A stretch of 31,781 nucleotides of DNA, taken from IMG/VR virus record IMGVR_UViG_2579778929_000008; one strand, 5' to 3'. This document shows positions 5,940-31,781 of the stretch, piece by piece. Under the pieces are notes generated by a model. The model searched no databases and was not told the DNA's origin. It saw nothing but the letters and a program-made list of their open reading frames with translations. A program made the translations under genes and the position numbers. Source of the DNA: a virus (lineage: Duplodnaviria; Heunggongvirae; Uroviricota; Caudoviricetes). Numbering within the stretch: position 1 is the first letter of the stretch; each line of letters begins with the position of its first letter.

Positions 5940-6963
<1,024 letters not shown>

Positions 6964-7325
6964 GGTAATATTAAATCGGAACATTTACATCGCGGAATGT
7001 AAAATTTAAATAAAAAGGACTCTTCCATGAGCCAAAATTCCTGAAATCTTAAGGGTAAGATAAAAGGTCTTAATCAGAATGACACGTTTTATTAATAAAT
7101 AAAGCTATTCTTTCATTGCTGTGTTTTTCTTTACAAAAGTAATCCTTGCTATGGGTGGTTAATCATGCGTTAATGGTGTTCTGGTTTGTTACAAATTTAT
7201 CTGAAGCAGTCATTGTTATAATTTTATTATTTGTACCTCTTGAGATTTCCTTGTTGGTTTTTCTCTCTGATATTTTTTTTCGGACCATTCTGCCCAAGGG
7301 CTAATTTCTTCAAAAGGTAATAATT

Positions 7326-7538
7326 ATGTCTAACAAAATGACTGGTTTAGTGAAATGGTTTAACCCTGAAAAAGGTTTTGGTTTCATCACGCCGAAAGAT
7401 GGCAGCAAAGATGTGTTTGTCCATTTCTCAGCAATTCAGAGCAACGATTTCAAAACATTAACTGAGAATCAGGAAGTTGAATTTGGTATTGAGAACGGAC
7501 CTAAAGGTCCTGCCGCTGTTCATGTAGTGGCGCTTTGA
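7326..7538 (+). CDS. cspI: CspA-family cold-shock protein (70 aa)
   Basis: [70 protein letters not shown] matches my recollection of CspI; preceded by a long AT-rich leader. Confidence 0.8.
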
Positions 7539-7548
7539 GGTAGACAAT

Positions 7549-7737
7549 ATTACAAACCATATTCACTTTAGATGCCCGTGTTGTCATGGTTCCCAGTATA
7601 GAACATCATCTTTTGATGTTTCTGACATGAATCCTTTCGGGGCAAAATGTATCTTTTGTAAATCAATGATGATTACATTTGATAATATTTCACAATACTT
7701 AAATGCCAGCCGTCTGTCGTTGGATTTAAAAAAGTGA
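7549..7737 (+). CDS. Zinc-ribbon-like ORF with no canonical start codon (possible ATT start or decayed gene)
   Basis: Open frame from 7528 to TGA at 7735-7737 encodes ...HIHFRCPCCHGSQYRTSSFDVSDMNPFGAKCIFCKSMMITFDNISQYLNASRLSLDLKK. No ATG/GTG/TTG lies upstream of the CPCC motif; GAGG (7537-7540) sits 8 nt before an ATT at 7549. First in-frame ATG is at 7627. Confidence 0.25.
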   Translation: MTNHIHFRCPCCHGSQYRTSSFDVSDMNPFGAKCIFCKSMMITFDNISQYLNASRLSLDLKK

Positions 7738-7744
7738 AAATGAA

Positions 7745-7766
7745 GGCTCCTTCGGGAGCTTTTTTG
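7745..7766 (+). terminator. Intrinsic terminator downstream of cspI
   Basis: GGCTCC-TTCG-GGAGCT hairpin followed by TTTTTT. Confidence 0.6.
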
Positions 7767-7809
7767 CTTGGTATCTATTCGATGGATACTCACATACTAC
7801 GGTAACATC

Positions 7810-8040
7810 ATGAAAAAAATCATAGTTTTTTTTAACTCTGAACCAGCAGTGGTAGTGCCAGCGATGACTGGAGTTAACACCATCATGCGTGAATATCCAA
7901 ATGGCGAAAAAACACACCTTACTGTAATGGCCGCAGGGTTTCCATCTCTGACCGGAGATCATAAAGTCATTTATGTAGCCGCGGATCGACATGTTACTTC
8001 AGAAGAAATTCTGGAAGCAGCAATAAGGCTCTTGAGTTGA
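7810..8040 (+). CDS. Hypothetical small protein (76 aa)
   Basis: ATG at 7810, TGA at 8038-8040. Product MKKIIVFFNSEPAVVVPAMTGVNTIMREYPNGEKTHLTVMAAGFPSLTGDHKVIYVAADRHVTSEEILEAAIRLLS has protein-like composition. No strong SD; track ORF begins upstream at 7768. Confidence 0.4.
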   Translation: MKKIIVFFNSEPAVVVPAMTGVNTIMREYPNGEKTHLTVMAAGFPSLTGDHKVIYVAADRHVTSEEILEAAIRLLS

Positions 8041-8211
8041 TTTGATGCTATTGTATTGATAATTCAGGAAAATTCTCTTTGTCTGTTTGTGTAAAATTTA
8101 GACTATCGTATGTTGATTATTGCGATGTTTCATCTTATCTTTTACACGTTTGCACCATATAATCGACTTACTGTGTAACTGGAAAGTCATAACAGACTAA
8201 AAGAGGAAATG

Positions 8212-8385
8212 ATGAATATTGAAAACTTAAAAACAAAAGCAGAAGCAGATATTTCTGAATATATAACAAAAAAAATTATTGAACTTAAGAAAAAGACCGG
8301 GAAAGAAGTTACCAGTATTCAGTTTACCGCACGGGAAAAAATGACGGGTCTTGAAAGCTATGATGTCAAGATTAATTTAATCTGA
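8212..8385 (+). CDS. gnsB: GnsA/GnsB-family small protein (57 aa)
   Basis: AAGAGGA (8201-8207) then ATG at 8212 (an in-frame ATG also at 8209). Product MNIENLKTKAEADISEYITKKIIELKKKTGKEVTSIQFTAREKMTGLESYDVKINLI resembles GnsB as recalled. Absent from the ORF track because it is under 60 aa. Confidence 0.75.
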   Translation: MNIENLKTKAEADISEYITKKIIELKKKTGKEVTSIQFTAREKMTGLESYDVKINLI

Positions 8386-8412
8386 TGTATTCAATAATAA
8401 AATTTATCCATA

Positions 8413-8438
8413 AACCTCGTTTTTACGGGGTTTTGTTA
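8413..8438 (+). terminator. Probable intrinsic terminator after gnsB
   Basis: AACCTCG-TTTTTA-CGGGGTT hairpin (one G-U pair) followed by a T-rich tract. Confidence 0.4.
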
Positions 8439-8536
8439 TATTTGAATGGTTCCGAATATCTAAATCACAATTGTTGATGGTTTTTATTAAACCAATGCAG
8501 TCCGGCTCAGGAGTGAGAGAAGCCGGACGTTATGGT

Positions 8537-8947
8537 TTAGCGTGGTAAGATCTGTGTAGTTTTCTGGATGCTTTCAGTAAATAGTAATGAGTTATCAAAG
8601 GCATAGTAATATCTTTGGTGTTCCTGGATATTTGTAACCCATCGGAAAACTCCTGCTTTAGCAAGATTTTCCCTGTATTGTTGAAATGTGATTTCTTTTG
8701 ATTTCAACTTATTATAGGAGGTCTCTATAAGATGTTTGTTTCTGGAGAATTTAACATTTACAACCTTTTTGAGTCCTTTTACTAACACTATGTTGTCGTT
8801 TTCTAACACAATGTGAATATTATCTGTGGCTAAATAGTAAATATAAAGTGAGACATTGTGACGTTTTAGCTCAGAATAAAATAATTCACAGTTTAAATCT
8901 TTACGCACTTGATCGAATATTTCTTTAAAAATGGCAGCCTGAGCCAT
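8537..8947 (-). CDS. ydfO: YdfO-like DUF1398 protein (136 aa)
   Basis: Minus-strand ORF; GGAAGG RBS precedes ATG at 8947 (track ORF starts 5 codons upstream at 8962 without RBS). Product [47 protein letters not shown]... Confidence 0.7.
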
Positions 8948-9247
8948 TGGTAAACCTTCCATGTGATACGATGGCGCGTAGTTAGCATTATCGTGTTTAT
9001 TGTTTCAATCTGGTCTGACCTCTTTGTGTTTTGTTGATGATTTATGTCAAATATTAAGCCTGTTTTTGATGAATAGTGTTGATTGCGTAACAAAATTGAG
9101 CCTTGCTGGCATCCAGGAGGGATATGCAACCGACAGATGTATGTAAGGTCGATGTACTCAAACTTTCATACTTTTCCTCTTTTATGCAGTAAGATTTGAA
9201 GTAATATTTTAACCGCTAGATGACGAGCAAACGCATGGAGCGACAAA

Positions 9248-9454
9248 ATGAATAAAGAACAATCTGCTGATGAACTCTCGTTGGATCTGATTCGTGTAAA
9301 AAATATGCTTAATAGCACCATTTCTATGAGTTACCCGGATGTTGTAATTGCATGTATAGAACATCAGGTGTCTCTGGAAGCATTCAGGGCAATTGAGGCA
9401 GCGTTGGTGAAGCACGATAAGAATTCGAAGGATTATTCCCTGGTGGTTGACTGA
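9248..9454 (+). CDS. Hypothetical small acidic protein (68 aa), possibly ynfO-like
   Basis: GGAG (9237-9240) 7 nt before ATG at 9248; TGA at 9452-9454. Confidence 0.45.
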
Positions 9455-9631
9455 GCACCATAACTGCTAATCATTCAAACTATTTCACCTGTGACAGAGT
9501 CAATATCGCATTCTGTCACTGTCAGGCTAATACAGAGCTGCAATTCAACTACTGCAATGTCCTCGTAATTAGGTGAATTTACAATATCGTCCTGTTCGGA
9601 TGCCGGTTGCATTGCTGAATATGAGGCATTT

Positions 9632-10000
9632 ATGCGTGACTCGCCAGGTCCCGGCTATGTGCATTTCCCTGACTGGCTGGGGAGCTGGTTTTACGACGAA
9701 CTGACGTATGAAGAGCGGAGCAGTGACGGGAAATGGAGTAAGCCGGGTCGCGGTGCCAACGAAGCTTTTGACCTGATGGTGTATGCCGAGGCTCTGGTCA
9801 TTCTGCATGGATACGAAAAGATCCGCTGGCCGGATGCACCGGAGTGGGCGAGCCGGGAAACCTGGCTGGAGTGTGTCCCGGACAGTACCGAACCGTCACC
9901 CACACCGGAACCGGTATCCACGCCTGTTAAAAAACAAAAACGGAAGAAAACAGTAACTGACGATGTTAACCCCTGGCTGACTTCCGGAGGATGGTTATGA
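9632..10000 (+). pseudogene. Terminase large subunit (lambda gpA-like), C-terminal ~120-codon remnant only
   Basis: ...DGKWSKPGRGANEAFDLMVYAEALVILHGYEKIRW... resembles the extreme C-terminus of lambda-family large terminases. No upstream terminase reading frame and no small-subunit gene. Sits directly before W and portal as in lambda. Confidence 0.6.
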
Positions 10001-10209
10001 ACCAGAATGATATCGAAGCCATGATTCAGCGTTATACGGAAGCTGAAATGGCGGTGCTGGACGGAAAATCCGTCACCTTTAATGGTCAGCAGATGACCAT
10101 GGAAAACTTATCTGAGATCCGGCAGGGACGGCAGGAGTGGGAGCGCCGCCTTGCGGCTCTGATTACACGACGACGGGGGCATCCCGGGTACCGGCTGGCG
10201 AGGTTCTGA
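9991..10209 (+). CDS. W: Head-tail joining protein W-like
   Basis: CCGGAGG RBS then ATG at 9991; 72 aa; stop overlaps portal start (TGATG at 10207-10211). Position between terminase and portal as in lambda. Confidence 0.7.
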   Translation: MVMNQNDIEAMIQRYTEAEMAVLDGKSVTFNGQQMTMENLSEIRQGRQEWERRLAALITRRRGHPGYRLARF

Positions 10210-11717
10210 TGGCAATTCTTGATGATGTGATTGGCGTTTTTTCACCAGGATGGAAAGCGGCAAGGCTGCGTTCCCGTGCGGTGATCCAGGCTTATGAGGC
10301 CGTAAAAACGACACGGACACACAAAGCCCGGCGGGAAAACCGAACTGCCGACCAGTTAAGCCAGTACGGGGCCGTGTCGTTACGTGAGCAGGCCCGTTAC
10401 CTTGATAACAACCACGATCTGGTTATTGGTGTATTTGACAAGCTGGAAGAACGGGTGGTGGGGAAAAACGGGATTATTGTCGAGCCACATCCGGTATTAC
10501 GCAATGGGGCCATTGCCCGTGATCTGGCAGCGGAGATACGCACCCGATGGAGTGAATGGTCTGTCAGTCCGGAAGTCACCGGGCAGTTTACCCGTCCGAT
10601 GCTGGAACGTCTGATGCTGCGTACCTGGCTGCGCGATGGTGAGGTGTTTGCCCAGATGGTTTCCGGGCACATAAACAGCCTGACGCCTTCTGCCGGTGTT
10701 CATTTCTGGCTGGAGGCGCTCGAGCCGGACTTTATTCCCATGACCAGTGATGAGAGCAACAGGCTGAATCAGGGCGTGTTTGTTGATGACTGGGGGCGTC
10801 CCGAAAAATATCTGGTGTATAAAAGCCGTCCCGTATCCGGGCGGCAGATGGAAACCAAAGAAGTGGATGCAGAGCGAATGCTGCATCTTAAATTTGTTCG
10901 CCGTCTGCACCAGATGCGCGGGACGTCTTTGTTGTCCGGTGTGCTGATCCGCCTCAGTGCCCTGAAAGAGTATGAAGATTCTGAGCTGACTGCAGCAAGG
11001 ATCGCCGCTGCTCTGGGGATGTACATCCGGAAAGGCGACGGGCAGAGCTATGAACCGGATGGTAATGGCAGCAAGGAGAATGAACGCGAGCTTACCATTC
11101 AGCCAGGCATTATTTACGACGATCTGAAACCCGGCGAAGAAATCGGAATGGTGAAGTCGGATCGTCCCAATCCTAACCTTGAAACTTTTCGTAATGGTCA
11201 GTTGCGTGCCGTGGCGGCGGGCAGTCGTCTGAGTTTTTCCAGTACGGCACGCAACTATAACGGCACTTACAGCGCCCAGCGTCAGGAGCTGGTTGAATCC
11301 ACTGATGGCTACCTGATCCTGCAGGACTGGTTTATTGGTGCCGTCACCCGCCCGATGTATCGTGCCTGGCTGAAACAGGCTGTGGCATCCGGTGTTATCA
11401 GGCTACCCCGCGATCTTGATCGTTCTTCACTGTATACCGCGGTGTATTCCGGACCGGTGATGCCGTGGATTGACCCTGTTAAGGAGGCTGAGGCCTGGAA
11501 AATTCAGATTCGTGGTGGAGCGGCGACAGAATCAGACTGGGTACGTGCAGGTGGTCGTAATCCGGATGATGTCAAACGTCGGCGCAAGGCCGAAATTGAT
11601 GAAAACCGCAAGCTGGATCTGGTATTTGATACCGATCCGGCCAGTGATAAAGGAGGCAGCAGTGCCGCAACGAAACGACAGGAGCCGCAGCACACCGACG
11701 ACCAGTCCGAAGAATAA
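10209..11717 (+). CDS. B: Portal protein (lambda gpB-like), 502 aa
   Basis: ATG at 10209 coupled to the W stop (track ORF begins upstream at 10137 in the same frame). Size and gene order as lambda B. Confidence 0.85.
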   Translation: MAILDDVIGVFSPGWKAARLRSRAVIQAYEAVKTTRTHKARRENRTADQLSQYGAVSLREQARYLDNNHDLVIGVFDKLEERVVGKNGIIVEPHPVLRNGAIARDLAAEIRTRWSEWSVSPEVTGQFTRPMLERLMLRTWLRDGEVFAQMVSGHINSLTPSAGVHFWLEALEPDFIPMTSDESNRLNQGVFVDDWGRPEKYLVYKSRPVSGRQMETKEVDAERMLHLKFVRRLHQMRGTSLLSGVLIRLSALKEYEDSELTAARIAAALGMYIRKGDGQSYEPDGNGSKENERELTIQPGIIYDDLKPGEEIGMVKSDRPNPNLETFRNGQLRAVAAGSRLSFSSTARNYNGTYSAQRQELVESTDGYLILQDWFIGAVTRPMYRAWLKQAVASGVIRLPRDLDRSSLYTAVYSGPVMPWIDPVKEAEAWKIQIRGGAATESDWVRAGGRNPDDVKRRRKAEIDENRKLDLVFDTDPASDKGGSSAATKRQEPQHTDDQSEE

Positions 11718-15365: not shown

Positions 15366-15737
15366 ATGACCACACCAAATCCACTGGCAAAGACGAAAGG
15401 TGCGGGGACGACGTTCTGGATGTATACCGGCAACGGCGATGCGTTTGCGAACCCTTTGTCGGACACTGACTGGCTGCGTCTTGCGATGGTGAAGGATCTG
15501 CAACCTGGCGAAATGACCGCTGATGCAGAAGATGACACTTATCTCGATGATGAAGATGCAGACTGGAAAACGACAACCCAGGGGCAGAAATCCGTTGGTG
15601 ATACTTCGGCGACGCTGGCCTGGCGTCCGGGTGACAGCGGGCAGAAAAACTGGTTCAGTTGTTCGACTCCGGTGAAGTCTGCGCGTTTCGTATCAAATAT
15701 CCCAACGGCACTGTTGATGTTTTCCGTGGCTGGCTGA
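15366..15737 (+). CDS. V: Major tail protein V, N-terminal part (reading frame lost after an A5 run at 15645-15649)
   Basis: AAGGAGG RBS then ATG at 15366. [52 protein letters not shown]...DDEDADW... matches lambda V as recalled, up to ...GDSGQK; beyond that the frame encodes unrelated residues to a stop at 15737. Confidence 0.75.
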
Positions 15738-16108
15738 GCTCACTGGGTAAAACCATTGCCTCAAAAGACGTGATGACCCGCACTGTGAAAATCAGCGGTG
15801 TGGGGCGTCCGTATCTGGCAGAGGAAGGCACTGAAACCGTGAGCGTTACCGGGCTGACAGTATCACCGGCGTCTGCCAGTGTAAAAGTGGGAGCAACCAC
15901 CACGCTGACCTTTACAGTAAAACCTGACGGAGCCAGTGACAAAGCGATCAGTGTGCATTCGTCAGATCCACAGACTGCCACGGTTACCCTGAACGGACTT
16001 GTGGCCACGGTAAAAGGCGTGAAGCAGGGCAGTGTCAGCATTGTGGGCATGACCGCTGACGGGAATTTTGTGGCTGTGACTGCGGTGACTGTCAGCGCAG
16101 CAGGTTAA
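15659..16108 (+). CDS. V: Major tail protein V, C-terminal part (continues V in the -1 frame; includes Ig-like Big_2 domain)
   Basis: Frame reads ...[35 protein letters not shown]...[33 protein letters not shown]..., matching the middle and C-terminus of lambda V as recalled. Track start at 15659 is a TTG. Confidence 0.75.
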
Positions 16109-16128
16109 CAGGACGATACTCATCATTT

Positions 16129-22320: not shown

Positions 22321-22761
22321 ATGGGTAAAGGCAGCAGTAAGGGGCATACCCCGCGCGAAGCGAAGGACAACCTGAAGTCCACGCAGCTGCTGAGTGTGAT
22401 CGATGCCATCAGCGAAGGGCCGGTTGAAGGTCCGGTGGATGGATTAAAAAGCGTGCTGCTGAACAGTACGCCGGTGCTGGACAGTGAGGGGAATACCAAT
22501 ATATCCGGCGTCACGGTGGTGTTCCGGGCCGGTGAGCAGGAGCAGACACCGCCGGAGGGATTTGAATCCTCCGGCTCCGAGACGGTGCTCGGTACAGAAG
22601 TGAAATATGACACGCCGATCACCCGGACCATCACGTCGGCAAACATTGACCGTCTGCGTTTTACTTTCGGCGTGCAGGCACTGGTGGAAACAACCTCAAA
22701 GGGGGACAGGAATCCATCGGAAGTCCGCCTGCTGGTTCAGATACAACGTAACGGTGGCTGA
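22321..22761 (+). CDS. J: Tail tip attachment/host specificity protein J, N-terminal 146 codons ending at an in-frame TGA
   Basis: MGKGSSKGHTPREAKDNLKSTQLLSVIDAISEGPVEGPVDGLKSVLLNSTPVLDSEGNTNISGVTVV...LVQIQRNGG then TGA at 22759-22761. As I recall lambda J, the next residue is Trp (TGG). Confidence 0.85.
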   Translation: MGKGSSKGHTPREAKDNLKSTQLLSVIDAISEGPVEGPVDGLKSVLLNSTPVLDSEGNTNISGVTVVFRAGEQEQTPPEGFESSGSETVLGTEVKYDTPITRTITSANIDRLRFTFGVQALVETTSKGDRNPSEVRLLVQIQRNGG

Positions 22762-29400: not shown

Positions 29401-29863
29401 GGATTTGGGGACGAAAACCACATCGTCGTTTGATTACGGCACTAAATCCACGAATAACACCGGGGCGCATACGCACAGTCTGAGTGGCTCTACGGGGTCT
29501 GCCGGTGATCATACTCATGGTAATGGTATTCGTTGGCCAGGAGGCGGCGGTTCTGCGTTAGCATTTTATGATGGCGGTGGGTTCACTTATGTCCAGGATT
29601 CACAGTATCAAGTAAGGCCGGAGACTTCTTCCTATAGATCGTATTATCAACGTATTCAGACACAGTCAGCAGGTGCTCATACCCACTCGCTGTCTGGTAC
29701 TGCAGCAAGTTCTGGCGCACATGCACATACTGTAGGTATTGGTGCGCATACGCACTCCGTTGCGATTGGTTCACATGGACACACCATCACCGTTAACGCT
29801 GCGGGTAACGCGGAAAACACCGTCAAAAACATCGCATTTAACTATATTGTGAGGCTTGCATAA
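26450..29863 (+). CDS. stf: Side tail fiber protein (Stf), 1137 aa
   Basis: ATG at 26450 (track starts at GTG 26444). N-terminus [37 protein letters not shown]... and C-terminus ...GAHTHSLSG...[22 protein letters not shown] match lambda Stf as recalled. Long Ala/Ser/Thr-rich repeats; His-rich GxHxH motifs near the C-terminus. Confidence 0.85.
26800..27800 (+). repeat. Imperfect tandem coding repeats inside stf (Ala/Ser/Thr-rich; units such as AAKTSETNA / [13 protein letters not shown])
   Basis: Recurrent nucleotide motifs (GCGGCAAAAACGTCAGAAACGAATGC and variants) produce low-complexity ORFs in all three forward and reverse frames (track ORFs 26847..27854 and 26947..27684). Confidence 0.6.
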
Positions 29864-30447
29864 TGGCATTCAGAATGAGTGAACAAGCACGGACCATAAA
29901 AATTTATAATCTGCTGGCCGGAACTAATGAATTTATTGGTGAAGGTGACGCATATATTCCGCCTCATACAGGTCTGCCAGCAAACAGTACCGATATTGCA
30001 CCACCAGATATTCCTGCTGGCTTTGTGGCTGTTTTCAACAGTGATGAGGCATCGTGGCATCTCGTTGAAGACCATCGGGGTAAAACGGTTTATGACGTAG
30101 CGTCAGGGGGCGAGTTATTTATTTCTGAACTCGGTCCGTTACCGGAAAATGTTACCTGGTTATCGCCGGAAGGGGAGTTTCAGAAGTGGAACGGCACAGC
30201 CTGGGTGAAGGATACGGAAGCAGAAAAACTGTTCCGGATCCGGGAGGCGGAAGAAACAAAAAACAGCCTGATGCAGGTAGCCAGCGAGCATATTGCGCCG
30301 CTTCAGGATGCTGCAGATCTGGAAATTGCAACAGAGGAAGAAATCTCGTTGCTGGAAGCCTGGAAAAAGTATCGGGTGTTGCTGAACCGTGTTGATACAT
30401 CAACTGCACCTGATATTGAGTGGCCTACGAACCCTGTCAGGGAGTAA
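29863..30447 (+). CDS. tfa: Tail fiber assembly protein Tfa (194 aa)
   Basis: Start overlaps the stf stop (TAATG). [79 protein letters not shown]... matches lambda Tfa as recalled. Confidence 0.9.
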
Positions 30448-30496
30448 TCATTGGGATTATGCCGCAGCACGTCTTAAGCAAGAACGTGCTGCGGTT
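30292..30496. repeat. Direct repeat copy 1 (~205 bp; tfa 3' end plus ~50 bp downstream including a 10-bp-stem palindrome)
   Basis: ATTGCGCC...GTTGATACATCAACTGCACCTGATATTGAGTGGCCT...CCTGTCAGGGAGTAATCATTGGGATTATGCCGCAG...CGTGCTGCGGTT recurs at 31341-31546 with roughly 85-90 percent identity by eye. Confidence 0.7.
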
Positions 30497-30501
30497 GGAT
30501 G

Positions 30502-31158
30502 CTATTTTTTCCCTGAAGCGGAAAACATTACTACAGTACCTTGAACCTTGGTTTTAACATTCTCGAAATGCTCTGAGAGTATATGTGTTAAGCCTTCTTC
30601 GGAATCTTTTGTGTTTGAAAAGATGCCTTTCTGATTGTAAATGCGCATCAGTTTTTGACCGAAGCTATTGTGCACAACTCCATCGCCAAGAATTGTGGCT
30701 CCGTATAGAGTTCCATCGTCAGTTAAGGCCTGCGCCGCATTGCGTATTACACAGCTTTTTGTAGATATATTTCCAGGCAGGCAGTGAAGAAGGTAAAACA
30801 TGGAAATGGAATCAAATTGACCATGTAACGCCGCGGGATAAGGTTCAAAAACATCATGGCTAATTTTATGTTTAATTTTTGATTCCCCAGCCCTTGTAGA
30901 TGCCGCGTTCAGGCTAGCTTCGTTCAAATCCATTAAAGATATCAGACTACTCTCAGGTACGTGAGTAAGGTAAAACCCAGTTCCAACACCAATATCCAGA
31001 TGGTTGTTACCTACATGTTCCAGAAAGTGTGGAAGAAGGTGTTCCTTTGTAGGACATCCCCATGCAAGCCGATTTGATACTCCCAAAACCCACCAGTCAT
31101 AAAGCTTTAGGGTAAGTGGTGTGTAAATTTTAGCCCCATCATCTGTGTTTTTTTTCAT
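30502..31158 (-). CDS. Class I SAM-dependent methyltransferase (218 aa), substrate unknown; AT-rich moron
   Basis: Minus-strand ORF; GGTGA RBS 5 nt before ATG at 31158 (track start 31170 has no RBS). Motif I ...HLDIGVGTGFYL... in a Rossmann-fold context. No DPPY/NPPY motif, so probably not an amino-methylating DNA methyltransferase. Markedly AT-richer than flanking phage genes (by eye). Confidence 0.7.
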   Translation of the reverse strand: MKKNTDDGAKIYTPLTLKLYDWWVLGVSNRLAWGCPTKEHLLPHFLEHVGNNHLDIGVGTGFYLTHVPESSLISLMDLNEASLNAASTRAGESKIKHKISHDVFEPYPAALHGQFDSISMFYLLHCLPGNISTKSCVIRNAAQALTDDGTLYGATILGDGVVHNSFGQKLMRIYNQKGIFSNTKDSEEGLTHILSEHFENVKTKVQGTVVMFSASGKK

Positions 31159-31226
31159 TGATTTCACCATGTTATAGTTTTATTTGTGAATTAAATCAAT
31201 TATGGCGATGAATTACAAGGGGTTAA

Positions 31227-31496
31227 ATGCTGCCGCAGCATAGCGATATTGAAATAGCCTGGTATGCTTCGATACAGCAGGAGCCGAATGGCTGGAAGAC
31301 CGTCACCACACAGTTCTACATCCAGGAATTCAGTGAGTATATTGCGCCACTGCAGGATGCTGTAGATCTGGAAATCGCAACGGAGGAAGAAAGATCGTTG
31401 CTGGAGGCATGGAATAAATATCGGGTATTGTTGAATCGTGTTGATACATCAACTGCACCTGATATTGAGTGGCCTGCAAATCCTGTCAGGGAGTAA
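31227..31496 (+). pseudogene. Second, truncated tfa-like ORF (89 codons; C-terminal domain only)
   Basis: C-terminal 55 aa (...[51 protein letters not shown]) are near-identical to the Tfa C-terminus at 30286-30447; N-terminal 35 aa are unrelated. AAGGGG RBS precedes the ATG, so it may still be translated. Confidence 0.55.
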
Positions 31497-31546
31497 TCAT
31501 TGGGATTATGCCGCAGACACGTCGTATGCAGGAACGTGCTGCGGTT
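31341..31546. repeat. Direct repeat copy 2
   Basis: See copy 1 (30292-30496). Confidence 0.7.
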
Positions 31547-31610
31547 AGTTTGTGAGCTTTCGATAGTGGTTGTTATTTTTGCCCTTATTTGTTCCGGAGG
31601 CCATGGTTCA

Positions 31611-31781
31611 ATGGTCCGTCTGCCCCCTATGGTGATGTCAGCAAAATCAGCCACTGCGCGAACCACAATAGCCCGGGAAGATGCTGAAGATCACCAGGTA
31701 AAGCTATCAGCGCAGAAACTGGAAGAACTGCTCGCATCAATGGTTAAGGATGAGGTTGATCGCAATGATGGGATTTATTGA
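31611..31781 (+). CDS. Hypothetical small protein (56 aa)
   Basis: GGAGG (31596-31600) about 10 nt before ATG at 31611; TGA at 31779-31781, the last bases of the window. Product MVRLPPMVMSAKSATARTTIAREDAEDHQVKLSAQKLEELLASMVKDEVDRNDGIY. Track ORF starts upstream at TTG 31500. Confidence 0.3.
   Translation: MVRLPPMVMSAKSATARTTIAREDAEDHQVKLSAQKLEELLASMVKDEVDRNDGIY

Follow-up and report, generated by a model that had tools for sequence, protein, structure and literature searches.

The DNA considered here, a stretch of 31,781 nucleotides referred to below as the window, is a Qin-like cryptic lambdoid prophage of Escherichia coli located at the ydfJ locus. Contig JJLS01000155.1 of the draft assembly GCA_000627475.1 matches it with 100% identity and the same coordinates, and a region of the chromosome of E. 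coli strain 102651 (NZ_CP189662.1) matches it with 99.94% identity. In the RefSeq annotation of strain 102651 and of a second strain, TUM14664, both sides of a Qin-like location are found: truncated ydfJ, ynfT, ydfK, pinQ and tfaQ on one side, and hokD, rem, ydfU, ydfT, cspF, cspB, essD, ydfR, rrrQ, rzpQ, cspI, ymcF, ynfN and gnsB on the other. The rzpQ gene of the window (6466-6963) has a run of seven A residues at position 6745 where strain 102651 has eight, and it is frameshifted in the RefSeq record and intact in the window; one assembly or the other may carry a sequencing error in this homopolymer. The right end of the window (29480-31781) is unlike 102651 and TUM14664. There, the C-terminus of the tail fibre and tfa are only about 94.5% identical, and the place of pinQ after tfa is taken by an open reading frame (ORF) for a 222-aa protein with a methyltransferase domain (30502-31170, minus strand) and a second tfa-like fragment (around 31320-31478, 86% identical to tfaQ). 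This end may represent a different or rearranged invertible tail-fibre cassette.

The region of interest lies between a block of small accessory genes and the structural genes of the head. On the left are gnsB (8209-8385, PF08178), a DUF1398 gene of the YdfO/YbcV type (8537-8962, minus strand) and an ORF for a 68-aa YbcW/YnfO-like protein (9248-9454, plus strand; PHROG 657, E 5e-47), with which the accessory block ends ahead of the position of cos. The product of this ORF is WP_001031431.1 in strains 102651 and TUM14664, and phage Tritos encodes a YbcW-like protein. On the right, a head-tail adaptor of the gpW type (DUF6148; 9997-10209, plus strand; PHROG 118, E 8.5e-37) is followed by a lambda-family portal gene (10209-11717, plus strand; PF05136, E 1.6e-81). 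In lambda, the space in front of W and the portal is occupied by cos and by Nu1 and A, the genes of the small and large terminase subunits. In the window, all of this module is missing but the last 121 codons of the large-subunit gene (terL).

The remnant, an ORF at 9632-10000 on the plus strand, encodes a product of 122 aa, which consists of a methionine followed by residues 580-700 of the large terminase (TerL), that is, the end of the nuclease domain and the C-terminal tail. Residues 2-122 agree at 121 of 121 positions with the same stretch, 580-700, of TerL (700 aa) in the sister prophage of TUM14664. The only Pfam match is PF20454 (GpA_nuclease/endonuclease), covering profile positions 223-294 of 294 with E 2.1e-17 and 63.7 bits against a cut-off of 22.5 bits, and the terminase large subunit family PHROG 15 matches with E 9e-46. 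Residues 536-596 of lambda gpA, among them E586 within the motif NEA(L/F)D, align with the stub, and identity to lambda TerL over the stub region is about 39%. Judged by its sequence, the stub is a descendant of a gpA-type terL gene, as the preliminary description of this DNA had proposed for the 122-codon ORF. It is far from a complete enzyme. The N-terminal ATPase domain (PF05876, Walker motifs) is absent from it by Pfam and by tblastn with four TerL queries, and only the last 72 of the 294 positions of the RNase-H-like endonuclease domain are left. The equivalent of lambda D401 falls in the deleted part, and the NEAxD motif (E586 equivalent) alone is kept.

Another family of unknown function, PHROG 12089 (208 positions), matches the stub at positions 88-208 with E 1e-80. 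Since PHROG 15, the terL family, is matched by this stub as well, PHROG 12089 is probably made up of C-terminal pieces of terL found in phage records and would be a mislabelled family of pseudogenes. Its members would start about 87 residues before the stub and therefore have different truncation points. An NCBIfam search gave nothing useful for the stub or the small ORFs.

No second source of terminase was found in the window. When both terminase subunits of lambda (Nu1 and A), phage 2H10, phage cdtI and the sister prophage were used as tblastn queries, the window matched at 9623-9997 only, all other matches having E of 0.6 or higher. A small terminase of the Nu1 or DUF1441 type is not found in the window with Nu1 or with the small subunits (TerS) of 2H10, cdtI and TUM14664 (best E 0.63). 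The earlier statement that neither a small subunit nor a terminase ATPase domain is visible in the window is therefore borne out by Pfam and tblastn together. The interval that had been singled out, 9455-10000, does contain the terminase remnant but starts too far to the left: 9455-9634 holds no terminase sequence and proves to be a conserved spacer that stands upstream of cos in intact relatives.

The nature of the loss can be read from a direct comparison with the undeleted prophage of E. coli TUM14664, the locus of which (L002) served as the reference for mapping, with an identity of 99.8-99.97% in the flanks. Here the 68-aa ORF is separated by 562 bp of non-coding DNA from a gene for a DUF1441 small terminase (7118-7612), after which come terL (7612-9714), W and the portal. 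The TerL of this prophage carries GpA_ATPase (PF05876) at residues 41-304 and GpA_nuclease at 326-644. Pairwise alignment shows that exactly 2,613 bp, L002 6736-9348, are missing from the window in one piece. The junction lies at 9634/9635 and reads TTTATG/CGTGAC, so that L002 position 6735 is followed by 9349; one G could belong to either side. Megablast of window positions 8900-10300 against 5,426 complete E. coli genomes gives the same picture. Strain 102651 alone spans the full query, many other genomes match its left 735 bases and end at window position 9634, and the phages cdtI, Tritos, mEp460 and Ayreon match from 9630 rightwards at 99.1-99.6%.

The deleted interval comprises about 200 bp of spacer, cosQ, cosN, the 186-bp spacer between cosN and terS, which is presumably cosB, the DUF1441 terS gene and codons 1-579 of terL. 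With these 579 of 700 codons, the ATPase domain was lost entirely and the nuclease domain by about three quarters. The preliminary suggestion that a deletion had removed cos, terS and most of terL is thus supported by the mapping against TUM14664, and so is its corollary that such an element is unable to package its own DNA.

The position of cos was derived from the relatives. The records of cdtI and Tritos both start at GGGCGGGAGCGTCGCGG, which is position 6932 of L002. The lambda cosQ (GGGTCCT, lambda 48473-48479) aligns to L002 6903-6909, and the lambda cosN (ACG/GGGCGGCGACCTCGCGG, with the slash at the nick) to L002 6929-6948. As a result, CACG/GGGCGGGAGCGTCGCGG of L002 stands where lambda has TACG/GGGCGGCGACCTCGCGG, and the nick in Tritos and cdtI is predicted at CCACG/GGGCGGGAGCGT. 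This assignment, which we infer from similarity to lambda and from the convention for record starts, places the equivalents of both cosQ and cosN inside the interval L002 6736-9348. The motif of the relatives, CCACGGGGCGGGAGCGTCGCGG, a family variant of cosN derived from the cdtI and Tritos record starts and the lambda alignment, is absent from the window at up to three mismatches; the lambda cosN 12-mer is absent from both the window and the sister locus at up to two mismatches.

Phages of the cdtI/Tritos/mEp460 type appear in this comparison to have a lambda-like cos at the equivalent of L002 6892-6948, with cosQ GGGTCCT at the same distance. The core of their cosN differs from lambda at 4 of 17 positions, and their small terminase belongs to DUF1441 and is not Nu1-like. 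A literature search found no experimental mapping of cos for this phage family, and in the Ayreon paper cos packaging is predicted from TerL phylogeny only. The undeleted relatives otherwise share the cos-Nu1-A arrangement of lambda, namely a gpA-type TerL with PF05876 and PF20454 and the cosQ heptamer, followed by W and a lambda-family portal, although their TerL is 700 aa long compared with 641 aa in lambda. The phages cdtI, Tritos, mEp460 and Ayreon correspond to window positions 9630-10300 at 99.1-99.6% DNA identity with the same terL-W-portal order, and Tritos shares the accessory block before cos. They differ from the window in having cos, terS and terL intact, and three of them, Tritos, mEp460 and Ayreon, are viable isolates.

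The retained spacer (9455-9634) is collinear with L002 6557-6735 and about 93% identical to positions 103-280 of phage 2H10. In undeleted relatives, the equivalent DNA begins 375 bp and ends 197 bp before the nick site of cosN. On the minus strand of the spacer, at 9475-9612, lies a 45-aa ORF of PHROG 4035, a family of unknown function (E 4e-34, profile positions 11-55 of 55), which has no PGAP annotation. In L002 this ORF is intact (6576-6743, minus strand, 55 aa) and is located just upstream of cos. The deletion stripped it of its start codon and upstream region, and codons 11-55 were kept. The spacer also contains an 8-bp inverted repeat (9491-9498/9512-9519), and it was near an imperfect palindrome at 9485-9525 that the junction had initially been suspected. 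The palindrome at 9491-9519 is rejected as the junction: it lies about 115 bp to the left of 9634/9635 and is unchanged in undeleted relatives.

At the actual junction, the hexamer TTATGG is present at both parental breakpoints. A clean microhomology deletion between these repeats is ruled out, as the observed sequence, TTATG-CGTGAC, is one G short of the clean repeat product. The mechanism would rather be illegitimate recombination, by slippage or end-joining, at or near the short TTATG(G) repeat. The missing G has a further consequence, in that it brings the ATG of the left flank (9632) in frame with terL codon 580; the clean product would have been out of frame with terL. This ATG is preceded at 5 nt by GAGG, and at the other end of the stub the stop codon overlaps the start of W (ATGA).

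A different explanation was contained in the preliminary description, according to which an incoming moron island (the ynfO-like gene, ydfO, gnsB and their neighbours) had replaced cos, terS and most of terL. The accessory genes indeed stand directly upstream of the stub. However, the block of cspI, ymcF, ynfN, gnsB, the DUF1398 gene and ybcW occupies the same place in TUM14664, whose undeleted prophage has it, in the same order and at 99.8% identity, flanked by the lysis genes on one side and an intact cos-terS-terL segment on the other. The isolated phage Tritos carries it as well, at the right end of its genome, and against the parental sequence nothing was added at the junction. The island as an insertion is refuted by these collinear undeleted relatives, and a replacement is extremely unlikely compared with a plain deletion.

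The junction is rare. The undeleted span, counted as present when at least 80% of a 2,961-bp probe across both breakpoints was matched, is kept in 1,299 of the 5,426 complete E. coli genomes, whereas the junction occurs in one of them, that of strain 102651. An exact-protein look-up finds the 122-aa product on at least 24 contigs, which come from two draft genomes and from gut-metagenome and read-set assemblies. The exact junction 28-mer is absent from GTDB species representatives and JGI metagenomes. In all ten carrier contigs that were fetched and in 102651 the junction is identical, with 0-5 SNPs per approximately 8 kb, which points to a single event in one clone. The same data bear on the origin of the window in a draft contig (JJLS01000155.1), which could invite the view that the junction is an artefact of assembly. 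Its recurrence in the complete 102651 genome, two draft genomes and several independent metagenome or read-set assemblies makes the chance of such an artefact negligible.

The terminase deletion is not the only damage in this prophage. The structural operon downstream had been described as intact, a view that does not hold: the V-like (tail-tube) gene is frameshifted at about 15367-16109, and the tail-tip gene J has an in-frame TGA at codon 147 (22759-22761). Furthermore, no integrase or excisionase, repressor or replication genes are annotated between the IS5-like element and hokD. With these two tail-gene lesions and without the integrase, immunity and replication region, the element lacks what a viable or inducible lambdoid prophage would have. 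The window itself starts (1-360; L001 10226-11633) inside an IS5-like ISKpn26 element abutting a truncated ydeN-like sulfatase gene and hokD. The arrangement suggests that the missing integrase, immunity and replication side, together with intervening chromosomal DNA, was lost by an IS-mediated deletion or rearrangement.

The order of these lesions can be read because a near-identical sister prophage still has the missing segment. Over most of the length that they share, the TUM14664 prophage and the window agree at 99.75-99.97% identity. The TUM14664 element has in common with strain 102651 the IS5/ISKpn26 element abutting hokD, the lack of integrase, repressor and replication genes, the frameshift in the V-like gene and the stop codon in J; an IS903B in the neighbouring mannitol dehydrogenase gene is likewise common to TUM14664 and the carriers. 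Since the terminase-positive prophage has the same older lesions, the prophage was dead before the terminase deletion took place. The cos-terminase deletion is the younger event: by then the integrase, immunity and replication genes had gone, the V-like tail gene had acquired its frameshift and J its stop codon. Packaging was therefore neither the only function that this prophage lost nor the first. In TUM14664, an independent IS1 insertion (L022 27181-31023) splits the tape-measure gene, which shows parallel and ongoing decay of the same prophage in close strains.

A well-known counterpart is the Qin prophage of E. coli K-12. The two elements occupy the same ydfJ site, with truncated ydfJ, pinQ, tfaQ, ydfK and ynfT, and share the block of hokD, rem, ydfU, ydfT/quuQ, cspF, cspB, essQ/D, ydfR, rrrQ, rzpQ, cspI, ynfN and gnsB. 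Both are defective through deletions, but the deletions are different. K-12 Qin presumably keeps the Nu1-like nohA beside ynfO and has lost everything from terL through the tail fibre. The element in the window keeps the genes from the portal through the tail fibre and is without cos, terS and most of terL. Its lineage differs also in having a DUF1441 small terminase and in the additional loss of the dicB/immunity side.

Taken together, the observations are best explained by a single late deletion of 2,613 bp, covering cos, terS and terL codons 1-579, in an already non-viable Qin-like prophage, which left a pseudogene stub; we give this reading a probability of about 0.93. The junction, the deleted content, the window free of terminase and cos, the older lesions shared with the sister and the rarity of the junction are direct observations. 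In the proposed course of events, illegitimate recombination would have fused terL, from codon 580 on, to DNA that ends 197 bp short of the cosN nick site, removing cosQ, cosN, the presumed cosB spacer, the DUF1441 terS gene and the first 579 codons of terL. The remaining stub carries, by chance, an in-frame ATG and the Shine-Dalgarno-like GAGG from the left flank. The element is able neither to cut nor to package its DNA, and because cos is gone, no helper terminase could recognise it. The deletion would have happened once, late, in a clonal lineage in which the prophage was already non-viable.

Whether the stub is more than debris was weighed separately. Given the ATG, a plausible ribosome-binding site and the retained ATGA overlap with W, it may be expressed. 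A functional neo-gene could then be imagined, whose 122-aa TerL tail blocks the packaging of superinfecting phages of the cdtI/mEp460/Tritos type or merely keeps W translationally coupled. If the last ~32 residues of lambda gpA are a guide, this tail would be the end that binds the prohead or portal. The start signals and the overlap with W agree with such a role, as do the prediction of the ORF by gene callers on at least 24 contigs and the frame itself, which a clean TTATGG-repeat product would have broken. There is also a precedent in Listeria, where the prophage protein TerI blocks the packaging of a rival (bioRxiv 10.1101/2025.02.27.640495). Yet the stub had one chance in three of falling in frame, which is nothing unusual, and conservation of the stub across carriers says nothing because the carriers are a single clone. 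No evident promoter precedes the ORF; in the region 8900-10300 the sole promoter-like match is a weak one (9/12 consensus, 9447-9474), and such matches are no commoner than in shuffled sequence (one, compared with a shuffle mean of 2.3). In a cryptic prophage the Q/late-operon context is likely to be silent, and the stub has no homology to known defence proteins beyond terL itself. A neo-gene of this kind is consequently considered very unlikely. Its most specific form, in which a product of decay was co-opted for defence and acts as a decoy that poisons packaging of cdtI/mEp460/Tritos-type phages through a presumed portal-binding tail, is conceivable but most unlikely. Under the preferred reading, a pseudogene left by one late deletion, we infer that the stub is without function.

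The stub is already annotated as a pseudogene in RefSeq, where PGAP labels it 'terminase gpA endonuclease subunit, incomplete, missing N-terminus', and the deletion is ordinary prophage decay. Its significance beyond annotation is small. The junction 28-mer offers a handy marker for the carrier E. coli clone in genomes and gut metagenomes, and the locus provides a cleanly mapped example of the stepwise decay of a prophage. Speculatively, the loss of cos and terminase may even be mildly favoured in such elements, because a non-excisable prophage that kept both could cut the host chromosome.
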